Source: Candidatus Magasanikbacteria bacterium RIFOXYD2_FULL_41_14
GTDB lineage: Bacteria > Patescibacteriota > Patescibacteriia > Magasanikbacterales > GWA2-37-8
Reading direction: 5' to 3'
NCBI GenBank assembly: GCA_001784475.1
Contig: MFRE01000009.1
Coordinates: 36,585-89,377, forward strand
Length of the DNA stretch: 52,793 nt
The notes under the pieces are model-generated. The model ran no database searches and was not told the origin of the DNA. It saw only the letters and a program-made list of their open reading frames with translations. Within the stretch, counting starts at the first letter, position 1. The number at the start of each line of letters is the position of its first letter. Of this stretch, positions 1 through 49,455 are shown piece by piece. The position numbers and the translations under genes were made by a program.

Positions 1-169
1 CTGTAACTTTGAATTTTGCCACTTGAAACTTTGGTCAACTCGCGGTAAAATATCGGTGGCTAATGTAGGCGTGTCTACGGACGCGTCTCGCCTTTGTAAA
101 AGACTGCTTGCATCGTCCTTGGGTGAACGAATCATAAATTCAAGTCGCCACGTATTTATACAGCAACCG

Positions 170-343
170 GCCGGTTGGCCGCTTGTCCTTGCCTCGGAAT
201 GGAAGATGCAAAAGAAGCCCGTTTGTCCTCGGCTGGCAACCTCGTCAATGTTGGCAACTTCGACGCGGACGGCGCGAATGTCAACAACGACAGTCCGGAC
301 AACTCCAATGACAATCTCGGCGTTTCTTTCGCCCGAAGTCTTT
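170..343 (+). repeat. DGR template repeat (TR)-like segment (boundaries approximate)
   Basis: It lies just upstream of, and co-oriented with, the DGR-type RT. Its reading frame is open only after the stop at 124-126. It reads ...NLVNVGNFDADGANVNNDSPDNSNDNLGVSFARS, with 8 AAY codons between 247 and 315. This resembles the C-terminal C-type-lectin/FGE-like variable region of DGR targets. It has no long upstream ORF, so it looks like a template rather than a VR. Confidence 0.6.
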
Positions 344-344
344 G

Positions 345-367
345 TCCCCCGATATTAAGTCGGGGGA
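345..367 (+). other. GC-rich hairpin at the 3' end of the TR-like segment, overlapping the avd stop codon
   Basis: The stem tcccccga (345-352) pairs perfectly with tcggggga (360-367) around a 7-nt loop, tattaag. Confidence 0.6.
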
Positions 368-744
368 TTTGTTTGTCCGCCGTTGGTTTTTTTAATCCAG
401 CCACCGAGCATCCGTCCGATTTCCACGAGCGCGGCTACCAAATTCAAATAGCTTTTTTCATTAATGGCACGGACATCAAAACAAAGGCGAATAATTGTTT
501 TGAGTATTTTTAGTTTAAGGTCAATTTTTTGCAATAATTCTAATCGGGCGGTGACGCGAGCGGCATTGGCGAAAAATAACATTTCTAAAATTTCAATAGT
601 CAGCCCCTCGCATTTTGCTCCCAGCGCGAAGCGGTCGCGTTTGGGCAGTCGCGTCGTTACGCCGTAAAGTTGTTTATAAAAATCATAGGTTTTATGGATA
701 ATAGAGATTTCCGTGCTATTGTCGCGGGGGGGGGTAGTAGTCAT
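355..744 (-). CDS. avd: Accessory variability determinant (Avd)-like four-helix-bundle protein
   Basis: The protein is 129 aa. The C-terminal VEIGRMLGGWIKKTNGGQ resembles the Bordetella phage BPP-1 Avd tail (..EVGRILGSWIARVNRKGQ.., recalled from memory). LPKRDRFALG and the heptad-like helices fit the four-helix-bundle / 23S-IVS protein family. It lies adjacent to the DGR RT. Confidence 0.8.
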   Translation of the reverse strand: MTTTPPRDNSTEISIIHKTYDFYKQLYGVTTRLPKRDRFALGAKCEGLTIEILEMLFFANAARVTARLELLQKIDLKLKILKTIIRLCFDVRAINEKSYLNLVAALVEIGRMLGGWIKKTNGGQTNPPT

Positions 745-1704
745 AATTTATTTGATAAAATTATTTCCTTGCCTAATTTATTCCACGCTTGGCGCGAATT
801 TAAACGCGGCAAAATGAATAAAAGCGATGTTCAAAATTTTGCGTTAAATTTGGAGGATAATTTGTTTGATTTACATACTGATTTGCAGTCGGGGAATTAT
901 CGGCATTCACCTTACACGGATTTTTTCGTACGCGACCCTAAATTAAGACATATTTTTAAAGCCACGGTGCGCGACCGAGTACTACATCAGGCGGTCGTGT
1001 CAGCGCTTGAGCCGATATTTGATAATGGTTTTATCGCTAATTCGTATTCGTCGCGTTTGGGCAAAGGCACACATCGGGCGATATCGTGTCTGCGAAAAAA
1101 GGCCTGGCGGTTATCAAAAAATAATACTCGGACAGTGTGGATTTTACATGGCGATATTCGCCGATATTTTGATTCCGTTGACCATGAGATATTGTTGCGA
1201 TTAATTGAACGAAAAGTCGGTGATACTAATGTTTTAAATTTACTTACGGAAATTATCGGCAGTTATTCTACTGCCCCCGGCAAGGGCATCCCGCTCGGCA
1301 ATGTTACCAGCCAGTTATTTTCTAATATTTATTTAGACGAGTTTGATCAGTTTATCACAAGACATCTGGGGATTCAAGATTATATCCGCTATGCCGACGA
1401 TTTTGTCGTTATTAGTCGTAGCCAAATTTTTTTGGAAAGTATGATAACGCTTACGCGTAATTTTTTGAGCGAAAAATTAAAATTGGTTTTACATCCGGAT
1501 AAAATTGTTTTGCGCCGTTGGCACAGCGGGGTGGATTTTTTAGGGTATGTATTGTTTCCGCACCATAATATTTTGCGGACTAAAACTAAATGGCGGATGT
1601 TTAACAGAATAAATTCCAAAAATTTTATTTCTTATAGTGGGATGTTGAGACATTGTCGGTCGGCGCGTTTGCGCGCCGATTTATTACGAACGGTTGATTT
1701 ATAA
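694..1704 (+). CDS. DGR-type reverse transcriptase
   Basis: Motifs seen: NLFDKIISLPNLFHAWREFKRGK, RDRVLHQAV, SYSSRLGKGTH, GIPLGNVTSQLFSNIYLDEFD (the DGR-specific [IL]GxxxSQ motif), the IRYADDFVVIS YxDD box, and GVDFLGYVLFP. The ATG at 694 is preferred over the TTG at 670 used in the ORF track. Confidence 0.9.
   Translation: MDNRDFRAIVAGGGSSHNLFDKIISLPNLFHAWREFKRGKMNKSDVQNFALNLEDNLFDLHTDLQSGNYRHSPYTDFFVRDPKLRHIFKATVRDRVLHQAVVSALEPIFDNGFIANSYSSRLGKGTHRAISCLRKKAWRLSKNNTRTVWILHGDIRRYFDSVDHEILLRLIERKVGDTNVLNLLTEIIGSYSTAPGKGIPLGNVTSQLFSNIYLDEFDQFITRHLGIQDYIRYADDFVVISRSQIFLESMITLTRNFLSEKLKLVLHPDKIVLRRWHSGVDFLGYVLFPHHNILRTKTKWRMFNRINSKNFISYSGMLRHCRSARLRADLLRTVDL
726..734. repeat. G9/C9 homopolymer inside the overlapping 5' ends of avd and the RT
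   Basis: Nine consecutive G residues, counted from the sequence. The count agrees with both translations: AGGGSS in the RT and TPPR in Avd. Confidence 0.95.
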
Positions 1705-1763: not shown

Positions 1764-2306
1764 ATGCTTATTTCTCAACTAGAATCAATCCTATTTGTCG
1801 CCTCCAAACCTTTGGCCCTAAAAAAATTAGCCAAGGTTTTAAATGTTTCGGGCGAAGATGTGGCGACGGCTTTGGCTGATTTGCGCGCGAAACACAACAC
1901 ACCTGAATCCGGTATCACGATTATTGAAAATAACGATGAATATCAAATGGTGGCTAATCCTGATAACCAAACGGTAGCGGAAAATTTTATCAAGGCCGAA
2001 GTGTCGGGGGAATTAACCCGTCCGCAGTTGGAAACTTTGACCGTAATTTCGTATTGCGGGCCGATTACCAAGCCGGAATTGGAACAAATTCGTGGGGTGA
2101 ACTGTGCTTTGATTTTGCGAAATTTAATGATGCGTGGGTTAGTAAAAGAACAAGATAGTTCTACTAATTTATTACCGACTTACGAAGTGACGATGGATTA
2201 TTTGCGCCATTTGGGATTAAATGCGTTGACTGATTTACCAGATTACGCGACTTTGCATAATCATGAATTTGTAGCGACTGCCTTAGAAGTGAAAACAGAA
2301 AATTAA
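1764..2306 (+). CDS. scpB: Segregation and condensation protein B
   Basis: LESILFVASKPL...ITIIENNDEYQM...LTRPQLETLTVISYCGPITKPELEQIRGV is typical of ScpB winged-helix domains. The ATG at 1764 is preferred over the TTG at 1734. Confidence 0.85.
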   Translation: MLISQLESILFVASKPLALKKLAKVLNVSGEDVATALADLRAKHNTPESGITIIENNDEYQMVANPDNQTVAENFIKAEVSGELTRPQLETLTVISYCGPITKPELEQIRGVNCALILRNLMMRGLVKEQDSSTNLLPTYEVTMDYLRHLGLNALTDLPDYATLHNHEFVATALEVKTEN

Positions 2307-5781: not shown

Positions 5782-5847
5782 TCTGTTTGTATGTCTTTGA
5801 ATTGGCTAAAATAAGCCAAAATAATATTTTATCCACAGGGGGGGGTC

Positions 5848-5876
5848 TTGACAAAACCCCTAAAATGTGCTATAAT
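5848..5876 (+). promoter_or_regulatory. Consensus sigma70-type promoter
   Basis: TTGACA (5848-5853), a 17-nt spacer, then TATAAT (5871-5876). A G8 tract lies at 5838-5845, 2 nt upstream of the -35 hexamer. Confidence 0.7.
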
Positions 5877-6003
5877 GGCCAGTTCTGAAAAAATGGAAAT
5901 TTATTTACATTTTTGAGGAACGCCGCCATTTCAAGCGCCACTTATAATGGCCAGTTCTGAAAAAATGGAAATTTATTTACATTTTTGAGGAACGCCGCCA
6001 TTT
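5871..6003 (+). repeat. Two identical 61-nt direct repeats with a 72-nt period
   Basis: 5871-5931 and 5943-6003 are both tataatggccagttctgaaaaaatggaaatttatttacatttttgaggaacgccgccattt. An 11-nt spacer separates them. Each unit can fold as an imperfect long hairpin (aatggcc..gttc..aaaaatg / cattttt..gaac..gccatt). Confidence 0.95.
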
Positions 6004-7747: not shown

Positions 7748-9349
7748 ATGATACGAGAAAAGAACATTCCTATTAAGAAAAAGCGTGGAAGAGTAAGTAA
7801 AATCGATCGTTCGCCAGTCGCTTTGATTATTTTAGATGGTTTTGGTTTAGGTAAAGTTGATGATCCTGGCAATGCCATTACTCCCACAACTGCTCCCAAC
7901 ATTTTTTCTTATTTTAAAAAATACGCTCATTCCACTTTAAAAACTTACGGGCAATATGCCGGTTTATTTATCGGGCAAGTAGGTAATTCCGAGGCTGGGC
8001 ATTTAAATATTGGCGCCGGCCGGATTGTTAAACAAGATTTAGTGATAATTTCCGAAGCGATTCATAACGGTACTTTTTTTAAGAACACTGCTTTTAAAGA
8101 TGCTTTGTTTCACACCAAAAAACATAATTCTGCCGTTCATTTAATGGGGCTTTTGACAGATGGTAATAGCGCGCACGCTTATCCAGAACATTTATACGCG
8201 CTGTTGGAGCTGTGTCGCGATTTTGGACAAAAAAAAGTTTATTTGCATTTGTTTACCGATGGTCGTGATTCTTCACCACATAGTGCTTTGCAGTTTTTGC
8301 GCGTTTTGCGCACACATATGTTGGAAAACGAAAAAGTGGCTACGATTATGGGGCGGTTTTACGGCATGGATCGAAATAAAATTTGGAGTCGTACCAAAAT
8401 GGCGTATGAGGCCATTACCGCTGGTAAGGGGAATTTTGCCAAGTCGGCCGAAGAGGCATTAAGTCAGGCGTATAACCGTGGTGAAACCGATGAATATGTA
8501 ATGCCAACTATTATTACAAAATCTGGCAAACCCATTGCCACCATTCAAGACAATGACGCGGTTATTTTTTTTAACGCGCGTAGCGATCGCGCCCGCGAAA
8601 TAACCAAATCATTAGTTCAAGAAGATTTTACTCAAAAAAATCCTGGTTCATTTAATCGTCGCCATAACCCCAAGAATCTTCGGTTTGTGGCTTTAACTGA
8701 TTTTGGGCCGGATTTACCGGGCGTATTAACGGCTTTCCCTAGTTCTGATATTAAGAATTGTTTGCCGCTCGCGGTGGGCGAAAAATATCGGCAATTATAT
8801 ATTTCCGAAACTGAAAAATTTGCCCATGTTACCTATTTTATTAATGGCGGTTTTGCCGATCCTTTAGATGGCGAAGAAAGAGAACTAGTTAAATCGGAAC
8901 CAGTGCGTTCGTATGCTGATAAACCGGAAATGAGTTGTCGCCTTATTAGCCGTAAAATTTGTAATTATTTAAAAAAAGATAAATATAATTTTATTGTGGT
9001 TAATTTTCCCAATGCCGATATGGTGGGGCATACTGGAAACTTGGACGCCGCCAAAAAAGCAGTAAAAATAATGGATACTGAAGTGGGTAGAGTAGTGGAA
9101 ATGATTTTGAAAAAAAATGGGGTGGCTTTGATTACCGCCGACCATGGCAACGCTGATGTTATGATCAACTTTGATACCAAAGAAATGATGACGGAACACA
9201 CGGAAAATTCAGTGCCCTGTATTTTAATTTCTAAAAAGTGTATGTTGAAACGTTTAAAAAATGGTATTTTAGCTGATGTCGCACCGACACTATTAAAAAT
9301 TATGGGCATTAAAAAACCCAAAGAAATGACGGGAAAATCGTTGTGTTAA
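7748..9349 (+). CDS. gpmI: 2,3-bisphosphoglycerate-independent phosphoglycerate mutase, paralogue 1
   Basis: LIILDGFG, GNSEAGHLNIGAGR (catalytic Ser), NADMVGHTG and TADHGNAD. It carries a basic N-terminal extension of about 20 aa. Confidence 0.9.
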   Translation: MIREKNIPIKKKRGRVSKIDRSPVALIILDGFGLGKVDDPGNAITPTTAPNIFSYFKKYAHSTLKTYGQYAGLFIGQVGNSEAGHLNIGAGRIVKQDLVIISEAIHNGTFFKNTAFKDALFHTKKHNSAVHLMGLLTDGNSAHAYPEHLYALLELCRDFGQKKVYLHLFTDGRDSSPHSALQFLRVLRTHMLENEKVATIMGRFYGMDRNKIWSRTKMAYEAITAGKGNFAKSAEEALSQAYNRGETDEYVMPTIITKSGKPIATIQDNDAVIFFNARSDRAREITKSLVQEDFTQKNPGSFNRRHNPKNLRFVALTDFGPDLPGVLTAFPSSDIKNCLPLAVGEKYRQLYISETEKFAHVTYFINGGFADPLDGEERELVKSEPVRSYADKPEMSCRLISRKICNYLKKDKYNFIVVNFPNADMVGHTGNLDAAKKAVKIMDTEVGRVVEMILKKNGVALITADHGNADVMINFDTKEMMTEHTENSVPCILISKKCMLKRLKNGILADVAPTLLKIMGIKKPKEMTGKSLC

Positions 9350-9429
9350 TATATATTTTTTAATTCTTAGTCGCAAAATAGCGGGTGAAAATGAAATAGA
9401 AATTTAAAATTTAAAATCTGCAATTTAGT

Positions 9430-11022
9430 ATGTCTTATAAACCGGTAGTGTTAACAATTTTTGATGGTTTGGGTGTGGCGCCGCCAGGTGAAGGCAACGC
9501 CGTGACGCTGGCTGTTATGAAAAACTTTAACAAATTTATCAAAGAGTATCCAGTGATGACTTTATTTGCCGCTGGCAATGAAGTCGGTCTTATGTTTGGT
9601 GAAATGGGCAACTCTGAAGTTGGCCATTTGAATATTGGCGCTGGCCGAGTGTATTATCAATCATGCCCGCGTATTAATCAAACCATCAGTGATGGTTCTT
9701 TTTTTACCAATCCGGCGCTTTTGAAAGCAATTATTCAAGCTAAAGAGAAAAAAACTAATTTGCATTTAATTGGTTTATTGTCGGCCGGCAATATTCACGC
9801 GAGTGAATCACATCTGTATGCTTTATTGGATTTATGTCGCCAGTACAAATTATCTTCCACTTTAAATAATCGAGTTTTTGTACATGTAATTCTGGACGGG
9901 CGCGATGCTCCCTATAACTCTGGAGCTGATTTTGTGCGGCGTTTGCAAGATAAGATGAATAGTTTGAAAGTCGGCAAGATTGCTTCTTTATCCGGTCGTT
10001 ATTATGCCATGGACCGTGACAATCGGTGGGATCGTGTAGAAAAGGCCTATCGCGCGATGGCTCTGGGGGAATCTGATCGCATTTCCGACGATCCAATTAA
10101 AGCAATTTTGGATTCGTATGAAAAAAAAGTTTTTGATGAAGAATTTATTCCGACTGTCATAACGAAGCGAGGCGCGCCAGTGGCCACTTTTAAAGAGGGG
10201 GATGCTGCCATTTTTTTTAACTTTCGGCCTGACCGAGCGCGCCAACTAACTAAGGCCTTTGTGCTTCCTGGTTTTGATAAATTTGAACGTCCTTATTTAC
10301 GCGATTTGTGTTTTGTAACCATGTCTGAATATGAAAAAGATTTACCTGTGTCCGGTGTTGCTTTCAATCCTTTGGTAGTAGTTAACAGTTTGGCCGAAAC
10401 TATTAGTAAGGCGGGTAAAAAACAATTTCATTTGGCCGAAACTGAAAAATATGCGCATGTTACTTATTTTTTAAATGGGGCAGTTGAGGACGCGTTCCCC
10501 GGGGAGGACCGATCACTTATCCCTTCTCCCCAAGTATCCAGTTATAACGAAGCGCCCGAGATGTCGGCGGCCTTAGTGGCTAAGGAGGCGGCGAAAGCTA
10601 TAGATAGTGGCAAATATGATTTTGTAGTGGTGAATTTGGCCAATCCTGATATGGTGGGGCATACTGGTGATTTAGCCGCGACTGTGAGGGGTTGCGAAGC
10701 GGCTGATAAGGCATTTGGCAATATTGTCGATCATACCTTAGCCGTGGGAGGCGTAGTAGTAATGACAGCCGATCATGGTAATTCCGAGGAAGTAATAAAT
10801 TTTCAAACTGGCGATATTGATAAAGAGCATACCACTAATCCGGTACCTTTACTTATTATTGGCAAGGATTTTCAAGGCCAAGCTGGGCCGGCTGGTGATC
10901 CGCCAGAAGGAGATTTGTCTTTAATGCATCCGGTAGGAGTTTTGGCTGATATCGCGCCAACAGTTTTAAAATTAATGGGCGTGGAGAAGCCGGGGGAGAT
11001 GACGGGAACGTCACTTATTTAA
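9430..11022 (+). CDS. gpmI: 2,3-bisphosphoglycerate-independent phosphoglycerate mutase, paralogue 2
   Basis: LTIFDGLG, GNSEVGHLNIGAGR, NPDMVGHTG and TADHGNSE. Confidence 0.92.
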   Translation: MSYKPVVLTIFDGLGVAPPGEGNAVTLAVMKNFNKFIKEYPVMTLFAAGNEVGLMFGEMGNSEVGHLNIGAGRVYYQSCPRINQTISDGSFFTNPALLKAIIQAKEKKTNLHLIGLLSAGNIHASESHLYALLDLCRQYKLSSTLNNRVFVHVILDGRDAPYNSGADFVRRLQDKMNSLKVGKIASLSGRYYAMDRDNRWDRVEKAYRAMALGESDRISDDPIKAILDSYEKKVFDEEFIPTVITKRGAPVATFKEGDAAIFFNFRPDRARQLTKAFVLPGFDKFERPYLRDLCFVTMSEYEKDLPVSGVAFNPLVVVNSLAETISKAGKKQFHLAETEKYAHVTYFLNGAVEDAFPGEDRSLIPSPQVSSYNEAPEMSAALVAKEAAKAIDSGKYDFVVVNLANPDMVGHTGDLAATVRGCEAADKAFGNIVDHTLAVGGVVVMTADHGNSEEVINFQTGDIDKEHTTNPVPLLIIGKDFQGQAGPAGDPPEGDLSLMHPVGVLADIAPTVLKLMGVEKPGEMTGTSLI

Positions 11023-11023
11023 T

Positions 11024-11140
11024 TGTCATTGCGACCCGCCTTGGGCGGGGAAGCAATCTCTCGTTGCCTGCCCCGTAGTGAACGAAAGGCGTTCTACTAC
11101 TGGGGTCATTGCGACCGAGTCGTAACGAGGTAAAGAAATC
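11024..11140. repeat. Cluster of short GC-rich palindromic repeat units (GTCATTGCGAC ... GAAGCAATCT family)
   Basis: gtcattgcgac occurs at 11025-11035 and again at 11105-11115. The cccgcc-ttg-ggcggg hairpin is at 11035-11049 and gaagcaatct at 11050-11059. A second hairpin, ccccgtagtg...tactactgggg, follows. Related motifs recur at 41791-41812 and 42298-42375. Confidence 0.7.
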
Positions 11141-31862: not shown

Positions 31863-32207
31863 ATGAAATTATTGTTACGTTGGTTTATAAATGCCGCGGC
31901 GATAATAATTATTGCCAGTTATTTGCCGGGATTGGCAGTGTCTGGTTTTTATGCAGCTTTAGTAACGGCTTTAATTTTAGGTCTGGTAAACGCTCTCATT
32001 AGGCCAGTAGTGCTTTTTTTTACTTTACCGGTAAATATTTTAACTTTGGGATTGTTTACTTTTGTGGTCAATGCGCTCATGTTGTGGCTCGTATCATCAA
32101 TTGTTAAAGGGTTTTATGTAGCCGGGTTTGCGAGTGCGTTCTGGGCGGCTTTGATTTTGTGGTTGGTAAGTTGGTTTACTAATGTGCTTTTGAAAAAAAA
32201 TAGGTAG
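31863..32207 (+). CDS. Phage holin family IV / DUF360 membrane protein
   Basis: LLRWFINAAAIIIIASYLPG...LGLVNALIRPVVLFFTLPVNILTLGLFTFVVNALMLWL matches the DUF360 pattern. Confidence 0.75.
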   Translation: MKLLLRWFINAAAIIIIASYLPGLAVSGFYAALVTALILGLVNALIRPVVLFFTLPVNILTLGLFTFVVNALMLWLVSSIVKGFYVAGFASAFWAALILWLVSWFTNVLLKKNR

Positions 32208-32213
32208 ATAAGA

Positions 32214-32243
32214 TTTATGTCCGTACACGTGTACGGACATAAA
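32214..32243. repeat. Perfect 30-nt palindrome, copy 1 of 3 (core ATGTCCGTACACGTGTACGGACAT)
   Basis: tttatgtccgtacacgtgtacggacataaa, 7 nt after the stop of the upstream gene. Confidence 0.95.
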
Positions 32244-32256
32244 ATTTAGTAAAATT

Positions 32257-41695: not shown

Positions 41696-42916
41696 GTGTT
41701 ACTCGCCATCGAAGCCAGCCACGCTGTTAAAACACCCCGCACGGGTGTGGAAGAAGCGTGTTGGCAGATGATTAAAAATTTATCCGACTTAGGCGGGCCC
41801 GCCTCGGGCGGAAAGTCAACTCTACCTGCGGACACGCGGGTTATTTTGTATAGTCATAAAATGCCTGATGACAAAAGTATGTCCGTACACGTGTACGGAC
41901 ATAAGTTTAATGAATTGCCTACAAATTGGGAGTGGAAAATTTTAAATTGGCCAGTAAAAAAACTTTGGAGTCAATTTCGTCTGTCATACGAATTATTTAA
42001 AAATCCGCCGGATGTTTTTTTTGCAGTTGGGCAATTATTACCATTTTTTTTACCTAAAAAAATAAAAGTAATTACTTTTGTCCACGACAGTGCGTTTGAA
42101 GCCGAACCGAATGCGTATAGTTTATTGGGAAAAATTTATTTAAAACTGATGAACCGCCGGATTGTGGCTCGCAGTGATAAAATTATTACATCCACGGAAT
42201 TTAATAAAAAAGAATTGCTAAAATATTATCAGGTTGCGTCGGAAAAAGTTGTGGTAGTTCCGCTTGCTTATGATGCCAATGTTTTTTGCATGGATTTGTC
42301 ATCGCGAGAAGCACGGCGACGAAGCAATCTATCATTTGATCAACAGAGAGATTGTTGCACTTCGCTCGCAATGATAAATAAACCATATTTTATTTATCTT
42401 GGCCGTTTGGAGGAAAAGAAAAATACTGCTTTGCTCGTGCGCGCTTTTGATCAAACACGTGCTAGTGGAGTTGACTGCCAGTTGGTATTGGTAGGCAAAT
42501 TTGGTAAACTTTCAGCAGATGTTCGCACCGCCTTGGTAGATAGTCCATATAAAAAAGACATCATTGTCCCGGGTTATGTTAAGTCAGAAGATTTACCTGG
42601 CCTAATGTGCGGGGCGCTCGCTCTGGTGTTTCCTTCCCGCTATGAGGGTTTTGGTATGCCGATTTTGGAAAGTATGGCTTGTGGCACGCCAGTAATTGTC
42701 AGTGATATTCCGGCCTTGCGGGAGGTGGGTGGATCAGCTATAACCTATATTTGTCCTAAAATTGCTGATTTGGCGCTGGCAATGGCCCAAGCAGCGAAAG
42801 ATCCAGTTTGGCGTGAAAATCATCGCCTAGCCGGCTTAGAACGGGTAAAAAGTTACTCCTGGACTAAAACAGCTGAAATCTTGGGCAGAGAGATTGCCAA
42901 AACCCGTTTATTTTGA
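41696..42916 (+). CDS. Family 1 (GT4) glycosyltransferase carrying three in-frame repeat-element-like segments
   Basis: PYFIYLGRLEEKKN and FPSRYEGFGMPILESMACGTPVI (EX7E region). It has a GTG start. The N-domain is about 30-40 aa longer than usual. Confidence 0.85.
   Translation: MLLAIEASHAVKTPRTGVEEACWQMIKNLSDLGGPASGGKSTLPADTRVILYSHKMPDDKSMSVHVYGHKFNELPTNWEWKILNWPVKKLWSQFRLSYELFKNPPDVFFAVGQLLPFFLPKKIKVITFVHDSAFEAEPNAYSLLGKIYLKLMNRRIVARSDKIITSTEFNKKELLKYYQVASEKVVVVPLAYDANVFCMDLSSREARRRSNLSFDQQRDCCTSLAMINKPYFIYLGRLEEKKNTALLVRAFDQTRASGVDCQLVLVGKFGKLSADVRTALVDSPYKKDIIVPGYVKSEDLPGLMCGALALVFPSRYEGFGMPILESMACGTPVIVSDIPALREVGGSAITYICPKIADLALAMAQAAKDPVWRENHRLAGLERVKSYSWTKTAEILGREIAKTRLF
41791..41812. 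repeat. GC-rich palindromic unit (GGCGGGCCCGCCTCGGGCGG) inside the GT4 CDS
   Basis: It is related to cccgccttgggcggg at 11035-11049 and translates to GGPASGG. Confidence 0.7.
41878..41903. repeat. Perfect 26-nt palindrome, copy 2 of 3, in-frame inside the GT4 CDS
   Basis: tatgtccgtacacgtgtacggacata translates to (S)MSVHVYGH(K). Confidence 0.95.
42298..42375. repeat. ~78-bp imperfect inverted-repeat element in-frame inside the GT4 CDS
   Basis: The left arm is gtcatcgcgagaagc..gaagcaatct and the right arm is agagattg..cttcgctcgcaatgat. The termini are of the same GTCAT(T/C)GCGA(C/G) / GAAGCAATCT family as 11024-11140. It translates to SSREARRRSNLSFDQQRDCCTSLAMI. Confidence 0.7.
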
Positions 42917-48087: not shown

Positions 48088-49365
48088 ATGCACGAAATAA
48101 AAAAACTAAAAAACGGTTTACAATACATTTACATTCCAAACTCCGGTACGAGCGCCGTGACGGTTTTGCTTTTGTTTCCAATTGGTTCGCGCTATGAAAC
48201 GCGACCAATTTCCGGCATCTCGCATTTTTTAGAACACATGTTGTTTAAGGGCACAAAAAAACGTCCGGACTACCTGGCCATATCGCGCGAGTTAGACGCG
48301 GCCGGAGCGGATTATAACGCTTTTACTTATAAGGATTATACAGGTTATTATGTTAAAATCGGGGCATCAATGGTAGGCAAGGCGTTTGATATAATTTCGG
48401 ATATTTCATTTAATTCCACGATGCCGGCTAAAGAAGTGGAGAAAGAAAAGGGTGTGATAGTGGAAGAGCTGCGAATGTATGAAGATAGCCCGATGCACGC
48501 CATTGAACTCGTATTTGACCGTTTAATGTTTCCTAACCACCCGCTGGGATGGGATGTTGGTGGTAATGAAAAGACAGTGCGGGCGATTACTCGCGCACAA
48601 CTTTTAAATTATTATCACGATCACTATAGTCCGCAAAAGGCGGTTTTAGTGGTCGCCGGAAATTTAAGCAAAGAAGATTTGGAAAAAAATCTGGAAAAAT
48701 TTGCCTTGGCTACTTCCAAAAATCCGGCCGAACCGAAATATTTACCGTTTAAATTTAAAGATAATTTGTCGCTGTCTGAGCGGGTGGCCGTCCAGCCCAG
48801 AAAAATTGATCAAGTGCAAATGATAATGGGTTTCCACGGGGTAGCTCATAGTGATAAACGGAGCTATGCGGCCGCGGTATTATTAACAATTTTGGGCGGA
48901 GGGATGAGCTCGCGTTTATTTGTGGAAGTGCGCGAAAAGCGTGGTTTGGCCTATATGGTGCGTGCTGGCTCTTGGCCTTATCGCGATGTTGGGTCGGTTT
49001 ATGTGCAGGCCGGTTTGGACCCGAAACGTTTACCAGCGGCTTTGAGAACCATTAAAGTGGAACTTAAAAAAATTGCCACGAAAGCTGTAAGCAAAAAAGA
49101 ACTGGCTGATGCCAAAACCAGTTTAGTGGGCAGAATGGATTTGGCATTGGAGGATTCCTCGGTGATGGCTGAACGCGCGGCCAAGCAATTTATTTTCTTG
49201 GGTGACGCTCTCACTGCCGCCGAAGTCGCACGGCGTGTGAATGAAGTGACGGCCAAAGATGTGCTCGCTTTAGCTAAAGAGTTGTTTAAGGTAAAAGAAA
49301 TGCACTTGGCAGTAATTGGGCCAGTTAAAAAAGAAGATGTTTTGAAAATGTTAAAAAATAAGTAA
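48088..49365 (+). CDS. M16 family (pitrilysin-like) zinc peptidase
   Basis: GISHFLEHMLFKGT (HxxEH) and the downstream EE..R pattern. Confidence 0.88.
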   Translation: MHEIKKLKNGLQYIYIPNSGTSAVTVLLLFPIGSRYETRPISGISHFLEHMLFKGTKKRPDYLAISRELDAAGADYNAFTYKDYTGYYVKIGASMVGKAFDIISDISFNSTMPAKEVEKEKGVIVEELRMYEDSPMHAIELVFDRLMFPNHPLGWDVGGNEKTVRAITRAQLLNYYHDHYSPQKAVLVVAGNLSKEDLEKNLEKFALATSKNPAEPKYLPFKFKDNLSLSERVAVQPRKIDQVQMIMGFHGVAHSDKRSYAAAVLLTILGGGMSSRLFVEVREKRGLAYMVRAGSWPYRDVGSVYVQAGLDPKRLPAALRTIKVELKKIATKAVSKKELADAKTSLVGRMDLALEDSSVMAERAAKQFIFLGDALTAAEVARRVNEVTAKDVLALAKELFKVKEMHLAVIGPVKKEDVLKMLKNK

Positions 49366-49367
49366 AT

Positions 49368-49397
49368 TTTATGTCCGTACATGTGTACGGACATAAA
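49368..49397. repeat. 30-nt palindrome, copy 3 of 3 (one central C-to-T difference)
   Basis: tttatgtccgtacaTgtgtacggacataaa, 3 nt after the M16 peptidase stop. Confidence 0.95.
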
Positions 49398-49455
49398 GTT
49401 AAGCGACAAAATTATATTGGTTTTGACCATTGGGAAGCGATTAAATTATTAAAAA

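Follow-up and report, generated by a model that had tools for sequence, protein, structure and literature searches.

DGRs of the CPR/Patescibacteria are reportedly the subject of Paul et al. 2017 (Nat Microbiol). In the excerpted text of Wu et al. 2018 (PMC5758913) these elements are the 'CPR set, architecture B3', and in that of Roux et al. 2021 (PMC8144416) they are 'DGR clade 2'. As excerpted, the B3 elements are chromosomal, reside in groundwater CPR hosts and comprise avd, a template repeat (TR) and a reverse transcriptase (RT) (PMC5758913), and CPR DGRs carry the variable repeat (VR) at the C-terminus of a target without a recognisable domain or signal. The BPP-1 element (mtd-avd-TR-brt; Handa et al.) exhibits adenine-specific transfer from TR to VR, encodes an Avd and has an IMH/IMH*-type difference between the repeat ends. 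In the phage DGR RNA a TR:Sp primer duplex is followed by G57 C58 and then by an avd:Sp 'cPRT Stop' duplex, and stem-loops downstream of the TR occur in 207 of 278 DGRs (bioRxiv 10.1101/2023.10.23.563531). In multicellular bacteria, DGRs diversify intracellular NTPase sensors (Dore et al. 2024, PMC10907252).

The locus described here lies at the left edge of a 52,793-nt stretch of a Candidatus Magasanikbacteria contig (the window). Positions 1-1704 very probably represent the donor half of a complete, chromosomal and recently active DGR from a groundwater Patescibacteria (CPR) bacterium. The layout of the element is target - TR - avd (reverse) - RT, an order that recurs in dozens of CPR genomes and that we take to be that of the B3 subtype. 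Host, chromosomal location, gene content and the position of the VR agree with the CPR DGRs as excerpted, and the three BPP-1 properties named above are present as well. It differs from BPP-1 in the place of avd, which lies downstream of the TR and on the other strand, in its host, which is a cell and not a phage, and in its target, which is no tail fibre. We found 61 related loci in Patescibacteria MAGs, 28 of them with both avd and RT; most of those analysed have TR/VR pairs with mismatches mainly at TR adenines, and the reverse orientation of avd recurs among them. The core finding is an ordinary one; the element is a member of the known Patescibacteria (CPR) DGR clade. Two features of its sequence, a poly-G tract and a structured leader RNA, appear to be moderately novel; the excerpted texts of PMC5758913 and PMC8144416 contain no mention of a poly-G tract, a post-VR element or a leader RNA structure.

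Reverse transcriptase, Avd and template repeat

The genes and repeats of the element within the window are as follows.

1-6, plus strand: end of the target gene, CTG (Leu590) and the TAA stop (4-6) of a 590-aa target
216-341, plus strand: TR, 126 nt with 27 adenines and 9 AAY codons, a direct repeat with the VR
355-744, minus strand: avd (accessory variability determinant), 129 aa, identified by Pfam, NCBIfam and PHROG profiles
694-1704, plus strand: DGR RT, 336 aa when started at ATG694; the G10 variant, started at GTG713, has 330 aa

A preliminary description of this DNA had proposed a DGR core of TR, Avd and RT at 1-1704, next to housekeeping genes. The core is borne out by profile matches of RT and Avd and by the TR/VR repeat pair, and the neighbours are scpB and an S11 D-Ala-D-Ala carboxypeptidase by Pfam and pgk by a precomputed Pfam PGK hit. 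The RT ORF scores 85.8 bits against Pfam RVT_1 and matches the PHROG 1423 RT with an E value of 9e-101. The DGR-specific GxxxSQ motif and the YADD box that had been read from it are both present: the ORF contains GIPLGNVTSQLF and IRYADDF, LGNVTSQ (GNVTSQ) fitting (I/L/V)GxxxSQ and YADD fitting the YxDD box. Its best solved-structure match, also a point of likeness to BPP-1, is the 328-aa chain 8ub7_A 'Reverse transcriptase' (E 1e-39), as compared to about 1e-22 for group II intron RTs; we take 8ub7_A to be the bRT of the Bordetella phage. By motif and similarity the RT is assigned to the DGR clade.

The 129-aa protein, earlier called Avd-like from its C-terminus, scores above the curated threshold of two profiles, with 66 bits for Pfam bAvd (threshold 40) and 88.4 bits for NCBIfam DivGenRetAVD (threshold 80), and also matches PHROG 3206 'Avd protein of DGR'. 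An exact look-up of its sequence returned no match. The avd gene is divergent from the RT gene and their 5' ends overlap by 51 nt, an overlap that causes gene callers to truncate avd. With 19 proteins, the yield of the search for Avd homologues was too small for a statistical treatment of Pro runs at the N-terminus; two close relatives also read TPPPRD.

The preliminary description placed the template at 170-343 and counted 8 AAY codons in it. The template role stands; the start moves to 216, as 170-215 belongs to the structured leader RNA described below, and the count for the true TR (216-341) is 9. Twenty-five of the 26 in-codon adenines of the TR are at codon positions 1-2. The TR is invariant in the window and in three further contigs (L001, L002 and L009), and TR and leader are identical across all assemblies. 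A repeat search and an adenine-wildcard scan of the plus strand found no VR or other second copy of the TR in the 52.8-kb window, as had been noted before.

The target gene and its variable repeat

Longer contigs of the source population were reached via look-ups of the carboxypeptidase and RT sequences. Window and L001 are 99.99% identical over 12 kb, and window position 1 corresponds to L001 position 7693. The earlier suggestion of a diversified target upstream of position 1 proved right: the leftward contigs L001 and L002 show a VR-bearing 590-aa gene that ends at window position 6 (ORF at L001 5926-7698). The VR (L001 7569-7694) is 126 nt long and forms the last 42 codons of this ORF; it ends at window position 2, and its other 124 nt lie beyond the left edge. 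It is the near-copy of the template that leftward extension had been expected to reveal. VR and TR are 84% identical in L001, where every one of the 20 mismatches coincides with one of the 27 TR adenines (P about 1e-17), and 80% identical in L002, where 23/25 do (P 5e-19). The absence of the VR from the window is an assembly or window-edge effect and no biological oddity; assemblies tend to break near the VR because it is polymorphic and repeats the TR.

The two VR alleles recovered, both from assembled contigs (proteins P0001 and P0057), differ at 19 positions, 17 of which are TR adenines, while the two proteins are 100% identical outside the VR. Both alleles are present in one JGI sample (L010 versus the start of L009), and we infer from these sequences that the DGR has been active in the host population. 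A metagenome scan for the VR/TR pattern with N at the adenines yielded one extra contig (L010) and no large VR set. A patch of 13 substitutions in the avd of L002 was considered as a second VR and rejected, as most of the changes are synonymous and they are not specific to adenines.

These data bear on three other readings of the segment. The DGR could be an orphan or have decayed, with RT, Avd and TR left without a cognate VR or target in the genome, or with the target at a remote locus. A 52.8-kb window without a VR fits such a state, but two independent longer contigs put a VR-bearing gene directly upstream, ending at window position 6, and this VR has adenine-specific mismatches and two alleles; a chimeric junction is also unlikely, as L001, L002 and L010 span it with identical flanks. 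We consider an orphan element very improbable. Equally little speaks for 170-343 being the 3' end of a real gene, whether a VR or ordinary coding sequence, and not a template: a CLec-like frame does extend unbroken from 175 to 513, yet it is closed upstream of 175 and then enters antisense avd, and 57-215 is a conserved structured non-coding RNA. The TR segment is moreover constant between assemblies where the upstream copy varies, and it retains adenines at sites that have any base in the other copy. Finally, the RT could belong to a retron, a group II intron or a defence system (DRT) and the TR-like neighbour be coincidental. Its top NCBIfam score is to a group II RT/maturase model, below threshold, and PADLOC DRT models match it too; all group II and DRT scores, however, are under the curated cut-offs, 8ub7_A leads the solved-structure matches by a wide margin, and the SQ motif, the adjoining Avd and the adenine-mutated VR/TR pair accompany the RT, so that this reading has virtually no chance of being correct. 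We retain the assignment of a complete DGR whose target lies immediately upstream.

The target is apparently cytoplasmic; its N-terminal half is a coiled coil, and its C-terminal domain, of 260 aa, is conserved. Sequence searches of Pfam, NCBIfam, PHROGs, PADLOC and PDB returned no match. The C-terminal domain was modelled with a pLDDT of 97, and Foldseek of this model against PDB and BFVD gave no significant match (best E at least 0.17); the weak PDB matches are mostly to FGE, EgtB, PvdO and Mtd, over 60-90 residues. The C-type-lectin-type variable region that had been proposed is not demonstrated, as a confident model finds no significant structural match. Foldseek of the full-length model matched only coiled-coil/BAR-type proteins, via the low-confidence N-terminal half, and was uninformative.

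Relatives of the target carry AAA_5 (Midasin/MoxR-type) ATPase domains and, going by the excerpted text, resemble the 'UVR4' class (PMC5758913). In the target of the window a coiled-coil region replaces the AAA ATPase half, a difference from the CPR DGRs as excerpted, and only one full-length homologue was found. Like the sensors described by Dore et al., the target family combines a P-loop/AAA NTPase with a C-terminal DGR-varied domain and has no export signals; in contrast to them, its ATPase belongs to the AAA_5 family and not to STAND/NLR, and the target of the window has no ATPase. PADLOC gave no defence match. A role of the target in sensing or defence is pure speculation.

Leader RNA and repeat ends

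Upstream of the TR we identified a promoter-like sequence and a structured leader, and at the repeat ends three further elements.

4-38, plus strand: post-VR conserved element, 4-5 spaced TTGA/CTTTG units (TAACTTTGAATTTTGCCACTTGAAACTTTGG)
23-51, plus strand: promoter-like TTGAAA-17-TAAAAT, consensus scan, 10/12 matches
57-215, plus strand: structured 5' leader of the DGR RNA, RNAalifold of 11 loci
67-76/79-88, plus strand: leader hairpin P1
99-105, plus strand: leader strand AAAGACU, followed by invariant G106 C107
108-119 with 200-211, plus strand: leader helix P2, ending 5 nt before the TR
123-126/145-148, plus strand: leader helix P2a
148-163, plus strand: conserved single-stranded block of the leader
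168-181, plus strand: variable hairpin of the leader
336-343, plus strand: IMH*-like TR 3' end, from comparison of TR and VR ends across loci
344-368, plus strand: 10-bp GC-rich hairpin, 2 nt downstream of the TR and with a T-rich run behind it, flagged as terminator-like

The TR-containing RNA is likely transcribed from the -10 box at 46-51 and would start near 57-60; a TAnAnT box occurs at the same place in most of the 11 aligned relatives. In the leader fold 91% of cells are paired, and 26 pairs are changed on both sides as compared to 14.0 in shuffles (0/500 as high), with lower counts in slid controls. Nine of the 12 pairs of P2 are changed on both sides. Rfam gave no credible match over 1-1800.

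The leader strand 99-105 pairs with 337-343 (AGUCUUU), that is, with the TR 3' end. Across 27 loci, 20 cells of this helix are changed on both sides as compared to 7.0 when shuffled (0/500 as high), slid controls are lower, and the leader strand is directly followed by G and C in every locus. Five distant relatives (L050, L052, L057, L053 and L063) exhibit weak complementarity between leader and TR tail. Covariation proves the pairing of 99-105 with the TR tail, and by analogy 99-106 may have a priming role. As in BPP-1, the TR 3' end is paired to a second strand, then comes a G-C, and then a strand that pairs just upstream of the TR. The partner of the TR tail, however, lies about 235 nt upstream, in the 5' leader, whereas that of BPP-1 lies in the 3' spacer.

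The two repeat ends differ throughout the family, with CCCGAAGTC at the TR and CCCGCAGTC at the VR. A336 of the TR is a C in nearly all VRs (CGA/CGC, synonymous), and the downstream sequences differ as well, TTGA repeats following the VR and the hairpin following the TR. By this comparison the VR end is assigned as a putative IMH and the TR end as a non-identical IMH*. The TTGA-type element comes after almost every VR end in related loci: of 38 VR ends, 84% have at least 6 TTGA/TTTG matches within the following 45 nt, as compared to 0.2% of random positions. The element at 4-38 is a candidate target-site (IMH-flanking) recognition element. There is no BPP-1-like hairpin or cruciform downstream of the VR at 4-38; TTGA repeats take the place of the BPP-1 cruciform.

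The hairpin at 344-368 overlaps the avd stop codon (355-357). It may serve the TR RNA as an intrinsic terminator, correspond to the Avd-binding stem-loop that other DGRs have just downstream of the TR, or do both. Hairpins follow 26 of 37 matches to the TR-end motif (17 of the 26 with a T-rich tail) and 2 of 47 matches to the VR-end motif (none with a T-rich tail). A stem-loop just downstream of the TR is shared with BPP-1, and the GC-rich hairpin differs from that of BPP-1 in coming after the TR and not after the VR.

A poly-G tract at the avd/RT junction

Homopolymer contingency loci phase-vary by slipped-strand events, as in the poly-G/C tracts of Neisseria, Haemophilus and Campylobacter genes. 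A run of this kind is present where the 5' ends of avd and RT overlap.

726-734, no strand assigned: G9 tract in the overlapping avd/RT 5' ends

In avd it is a poly-C stretch within codons 4-7, and in the 5' region of the RT it encodes consecutive glycines. With G9, both avd (ATG744) and RT (ATG694) are in frame; with G10, avd shrinks to a 75-aa internal ORF and the RT can start only at GTG713. The avd frame from its only upstream ATG is kept by G9 (or G9 +/- 3) only. The tract is G9 in the window, L001 and L009 and G10 in L002 and L004, two MEGAHIT contigs (L003 and L006) start within it, and public assemblies hold both RT forms (P0049, 336 aa; P0050, 330 aa). Six of 28 relatives carry runs of G8-G13 at this junction, and these are 6 of all 11 G/C runs of at least 8 in 737 kb (P about 3e-11); another relative, L053, has (GA)7 at the tract position.

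As at contingency loci, a G/C run of at least 8 lies in the first codons, where a change of one unit shifts the frame, its length differs between assemblies, and assembled relatives are often out of frame. Unlike at those loci, the tract is located in two divergent overlapping mutagenesis genes and not in a surface or restriction gene. A literature search for DGRs linked with homopolymer tracts found no paper. The tract was also considered as the spacer of a plus-strand promoter (719-747) and rejected, as the start would fall downstream of every usable RT start codon.

The tract may be no switch at all, the G9/G10 difference being a sequencing or assembly error and the run neutral or tolerated in the N-termini of Avd and RT; we give this explanation only slightly less than an even chance. 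Long G runs in general differ between assemblies: the second long G run of the window (G8, 5838-5845) is G9 in L009, and the G9/G10 difference could therefore be technical. In L011, ATGs in all three frames upstream of the tract mean that avd would be made at any length. Against this explanation stand the runs of G8-G13 at the same position in 6/28 diverged relatives and the (GA)7 in one, and a tract-free relative (L024) encodes a single Pro there (MTTTPDN), so that the protein needs no run. In L038, L043, L047 and L065 the assembled tract is out of frame for full-length avd, the G10 of L002 accompanies a distinct avd haplotype, and the two MEGAHIT contigs that start inside the tract also count against an error. 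The combined proposal that the tract phase-varies Avd together with the RT start choice, and that this clade uses a circularly permuted DGR RNA with the primer/stop strand 5' of the TR, is put forward tentatively, as a possibility that we rate as rather unlikely.

Discussion

In the mechanism that we propose for the element, an RNA would start near 57 and end at the hairpin at 344-368. It would fold so that 99-105 pairs with the TR 3' end (337-343) and P2 closes the TR 5' end, and by analogy with the Bordetella phage DGR RNA the two duplexes would be the template:primer and stop duplexes. The primer/stop strand would be 5' of the TR and not 3', which amounts to a circular permutation. The RT-Avd complex would prime in cis near U105/G106 and copy the TR with random incorporation opposite adenines, and copying would halt at P2, for which a stop function is presumed. 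Upstream of the fixed C by which IMH and IMH* differ, the VR would be replaced by the cDNA. The G9 tract may make expression of the machinery stochastically switchable, and this is the least certain step.

With the target gene in place, the target-less DGR flagged in the preliminary description vanishes as an oddity. DGR variable repeats break assemblies, and orphan DGR cores at contig ends need extension before they are interpreted.

To our knowledge, what has been learnt of the mechanism of DGR priming derives entirely from a single phage element. The comparison of sequences suggests that a CPR clade builds the phage-like duplex geometry from a permuted RNA. The permuted DGR RNA could guide the reconstitution of CPR elements and their use as mutagenesis tools. 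The CPR clade itself is very large.

Little is understood of the regulation of DGR activity, or of the way in which adaptive variants escape further mutagenesis. The recurrence of a hypermutable tract at the start of avd and RT provides a concrete hypothesis on DGR regulation. If it is true, a lineage with a phase-variable machine could keep a useful VR variant unchanged and return to mutagenesis later.

Target gene and variable repeat

The window edge (1-1704) carries a diversity-generating retroelement (DGR), as the preliminary description proposed from a template repeat, Avd and reverse transcriptase (RT); family matches of Avd and RT and adenine-specific mismatches between the repeats bear this out. 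Its core consists of:

L001 5926-7698: target gene, a 590-aa ORF with its TAA stop at window 4-6
L001 7569-7694: variable repeat (VR), the last 126 nt of that ORF
216-341, + strand: template repeat (TR), the direct repeat of those 126 nt
744-355, - strand: avd, 129 aa
694-1704, + strand: RT, 336 aa, with an RVT_1 domain and the motifs GIPLGNVTSQLF and IRYADDF

The avd product exceeds the curated thresholds of both Pfam bAvd (66 bits) and the NCBIfam Avd model (88.4 bits) and also matches the PHROG 'Avd protein of DGR'. The best solved-structure relative of the RT is 8ub7_A (E 1e-39), a 328-aa 'Reverse transcriptase' chain that we take to be the Bordetella phage DGR RT, whereas group II intron RTs reach only about 1e-22. 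avd runs opposite to the TR and RT, its ATG (744) lying 51 nt inside the RT ORF (ATG 694), and the segment upstream of the two genes is GC-rich (56%) and adenine-rich. An open frame at 175-513 was rejected as a gene. The template had been placed at 170-343; its true limits are 216-341. The TR holds 27 adenines (25 of 26 in-codon adenines at codon positions 1-2) and nine AAY codons rather than the eight first counted.

Neither a repeat search nor an adenine-wildcard scan of the + strand found a second copy of the template segment in the 52,793 bases, so the earlier observation to that effect was correct. Exact-protein look-ups with the carboxypeptidase and the RT led to nine public contigs from this population, which match the window at 99.9-99.99% identity over as much as 12 kb. 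Contigs L001 (ENA ERZ28563792, scaffold_104, 78 kb) and L002 (ERZ4902888, 92 kb) extend it leftward, window position 1 being L001 7693, and place the target upstream of position 1 as had been anticipated. Every one of the 20 mismatches between the L001 VR and the TR falls on one of the 27 TR adenines, leaving the other 99 positions unchanged (P about 1e-17); for L002 the count is 23/25 (P about 5e-19). The 'missing' VR is an edge effect, the window beginning at the VR end; the DGR is complete and shows the classic signature. An orphan DGR was rejected, the target adjoining the left edge of the window.

The two target alleles (P0001 and P0057) agree at every residue from 1 to 548, all their differences lying within the VR, with 17 of 19 nucleotide differences at TR-adenine positions, while the TR and its flanks are identical across all assemblies. 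In JGI sample 3300025088, contig L010 (allele A) stops just past the VR, and contig L009, whose start is 18 nt left of window position 1, shows allele B's G-to-T change; the two alleles therefore occur together in one sample, and the assembly broke there. Judged from these contigs, diversification appears recent on the time-scale of an otherwise almost clonal population.

Searches of Pfam, NCBIfam, PHROG, PADLOC and PDB sequences gave no match to the target. A helical or coiled-coil structure is predicted, with low confidence, for its N-terminal 330 residues. Forty-seven database proteins share the conserved C-terminal 260 residues, and many of them have an AAA_5 (MoxR/Midasin-type) ATPase preceding this domain. 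Foldseek with the C-terminal domain model (pLDDT 97) returned no significant match in PDB and none in BFVD; the weak PDB matches (60-90 residues aligned, E at least 0.3) are nearly all FGE, EgtB, PvdO and Mtd, which have CLec/FGE-type folds. The initial label 'C-type-lectin-type' is plausible on these matches but not established.

Relatives in Patescibacteria

A genome scan yielded 61 related loci, almost all in Patescibacteria (CPR) MAGs (Parcubacteria, Berkelbacteria, Magasanikbacteria, Falkowbacteria, Zambryskibacteria, Saccharibacteria and others). avd and RT are both present in 28 of them, almost always in the order target(s) (+), TR (+), avd (-), RT (+), and two or three tandem targets are frequent. 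In many relatives tandem target paralogues share one TR, each with its own adenine-mutated VR (L013, L014, L016, L017, L020, L022, L030, L037, L043, L045, L047 and L052), some VRs having indels relative to the TR. Most loci analysed yielded TR/VR pairs whose mismatches lie mainly at TR adenines.

Layout and host range match published CPR DGRs as far as the available text of two surveys describes them. Wu et al. 2018 (PMC5758913) report a 'CPR set', 90% of whose DGRs have 'architecture B3', and a VR class, UVR4, in Midasin/AAA-type proteins with unassigned fold; Roux et al. 2021 (PMC8144416) describe a Patescibacteria-only 'DGR clade 2' whose targets lack recognisable domains. The element is a further member of this known, abundant kind, and may already be within published CPR surveys because the contig stems from Rifle aquifer data.

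Repeat ends and leader RNA

The non-coding features of the element are:

4-38: TTGA/CTTTG array after the VR stop, conserved in relatives
46-51: conserved -10-like box
67-76/79-88: P1 helix (RNAalifold)
99-105 with 337-343: long-range helix, leader AAAGACU with TR 3' end AGUCUUU (RNAalifold)
108-119 with 200-211: P2 helix (RNAalifold), 9 of 12 pairs changed on both sides
123-126/145-148: P2a helix (RNAalifold)
344-368: GC-rich hairpin after the TR

Among relatives, TRs end in CCCGAAGTC and VRs in CCCGCAGTC almost without exception; A336 is thus a constant, synonymous (CGA/CGC) difference rather than a position of mutagenesis. It appears to mark where information transfer ends on the 3' side, as the IMH and IMH* elements at VR and TR ends do. 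At least six TTGA/CTTTG hits within 45 nt occur at 84% of 38 VR ends and at 0.2% of random positions, and the array follows nearly every VR (L011-L031), including those of targets with no adjoining TR; it is a possible target-site recognition element. The window's own array overlaps the -35 of a putative promoter for the TR RNA.

In relatives, a GC-rich hairpin lies within a few bases of the TR end at 26 of 37 TR-end motif hits, usually with a T-run, and VR stop codons lack it (2 of 47 VR-end hits). The hairpin at 344-368 scored as terminator-like; it also fits the stem-loop that the available text of Handa et al. (bioRxiv 10.1101/2023.10.23.563531) places just downstream of the TR in 207/278 DGRs and, in the Bordetella phage BPP-1, assigns to Avd binding.

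The 215 nt from the target stop to the TR contain invariant blocks and helices with abundant compensatory changes in relatives. Over 11 loci, 91% of cells in the leader helices are paired and 26 pairs are changed on both sides, as compared to 14.0 in shuffles (0/500 as high); every slid control was lower. In a 27-locus anchored alignment the long-range helix exhibits G:C to C:G, C:G to U:A and several A:U to U:A swaps, with 20 cells changed on both sides (7.0 in shuffles, 0/500 as high) and a covariation score of 0.27 versus 0.09. G106 and C107, directly after the leader strand, are invariant in the 27 loci. Complementarity between leader and TR tail is weak in the most distant relatives, and no Rfam family matches the leader/TR region.

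The phage DGR RNA pairs spacer nucleotides 47-56 with the 3' end of the TR; A56, from which priming starts, precedes G57 and C58, and the spacer segment after these forms the 'cPRT Stop' with sequence immediately upstream of the TR (bioRxiv 10.1101/2023.10.23.563531, available text). The CPR RNA keeps this order, with a primer-like strand, GC and a stop-duplex strand, and the two strands pair with the corresponding partners, the 3' end of the TR and the sequence immediately 5' of it; unlike in the phage RNA as described there, the primer/stop strand lies 5' of the TR. By analogy, from the shared order and partners and the 5' shift, we infer that the CPR element uses a circularly permuted DGR RNA. 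In this model, cis-priming near U105/G106, opposite A336/G335, would be followed by cDNA copying through the TR and arrest at P2. As sequence evidence, the covariation demonstrates the leader pairings, not the priming chemistry.

A poly-G tract at the avd/RT junction

726-734: poly-G tract (G9), within avd codons 4-7 (MTTTPPRD) and the RT 5' region

This is the only G/C run of at least 9 in the window (0.1 expected from a base-composition model). The window, L001 and L009 share G9, L002 and L004 have G10, and two MEGAHIT contigs begin within the tract. At G9 both genes are in frame, avd from its sole upstream ATG and RT from ATG694. At G10, avd is reduced to a 75-aa internal ORF and RT is still open from GTG713, a 330-aa form that is on record (P0050); at G8 neither has a good start. 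Tracts of G8-G13 occupy the same place in 6 of the 28 relatives with both genes (L011, L038, L043, L047, L061 and L065), scattered over the RT tree, and L053 has (GA)7 there. These junction tracts are 6 of only 11 G/C runs of at least 8 in 737 kb (P about 3e-11). Relatives without the tract have a single Pro at that place, which shows that the run is dispensable for the protein. Full-length avd is out of frame at the assembled tract length in four of the six tract-bearing relatives.

In its recurrence and frame effects the tract looks like a slipped-strand contingency switch. Several points call for caution. The G run at 5838-5845, the window's other long one, likewise differs between assemblies; the samples behind G10 may share an origin; L011 has start codons in all three frames; and slippage during transcription or an error in sequencing may be involved instead. 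Weighing these points, we consider a real regulatory switch plausible, while leaning slightly against it. A literature search found no paper linking DGRs with such tracts.

Other long G/C runs in the related loci are at L016 11647 (G9), L036 3505 (C8), L018 10381 (C9), L032 4502 (G8) and L044 6968 (C8); those of L016 (about 60 nt past the RT stop) and L036 (4 nt past a target-gene end) adjoin DGR parts.

Genomic setting

The cassette, about 4 kb long (82-aa ORF, target, TR, avd and RT), separates scpA (L001 4724-5416) from scpB (window 1764-2306). In relative L012 (11135-12371) scpA and scpB are 20 nt apart with no DGR between them, which suggests insertion or loss at this site. The housekeeping neighbours named initially were recovered, scpB and an S11 carboxypeptidase by Pfam and pgk by a precomputed Pfam hit on the neighbouring gene. 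Two tandem cofactor-independent phosphoglycerate mutase paralogues (533 and 530 aa; window about 7750-11030, L001 15440-18714) adjoin enolase and pgk, their DNA being 70-81% identical in patches (repeat families D4, D7 and D11).

Over 76 nt of avd, 598-673 (-) and L002 8289-8364 differ at 13 sites, by substitutions that are mostly synonymous (three amino acids change) and show no adenine specificity; except for the VR and poly-G, the 20 kb around this patch is almost identical. Contig L004 begins exactly at the patch edge (674). The patch resembles a short tract acquired from another avd copy by gene conversion or recombination.

The G8 run at 5838 (G9 in L009) is intergenic, directly upstream of a perfect TTGACA-17-TATAAT promoter, past which a 61-nt segment occurs twice at 100% identity (5871-5931 and 5943-6003), apparently once in contig L003. 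Thus 5838-6003 holds a second length-variable G tract beside a copy-number-variable repeat. A perfect palindrome, TATGTCCGTACACGTGTACGGACATA (27-41 nt), has three copies over 17 kb (32193-32249, 41871-41911 and 49363-49418) and could be an operator-like or REP-like element.

Implications

The available text of the DGR papers describes neither the poly-G tract nor a permuted RNA. The remaining interest of this element lies in these two family-wide features, a recurrent tract at the avd/RT junction and a proposed permuted DGR RNA whose pairings are supported by covariation.
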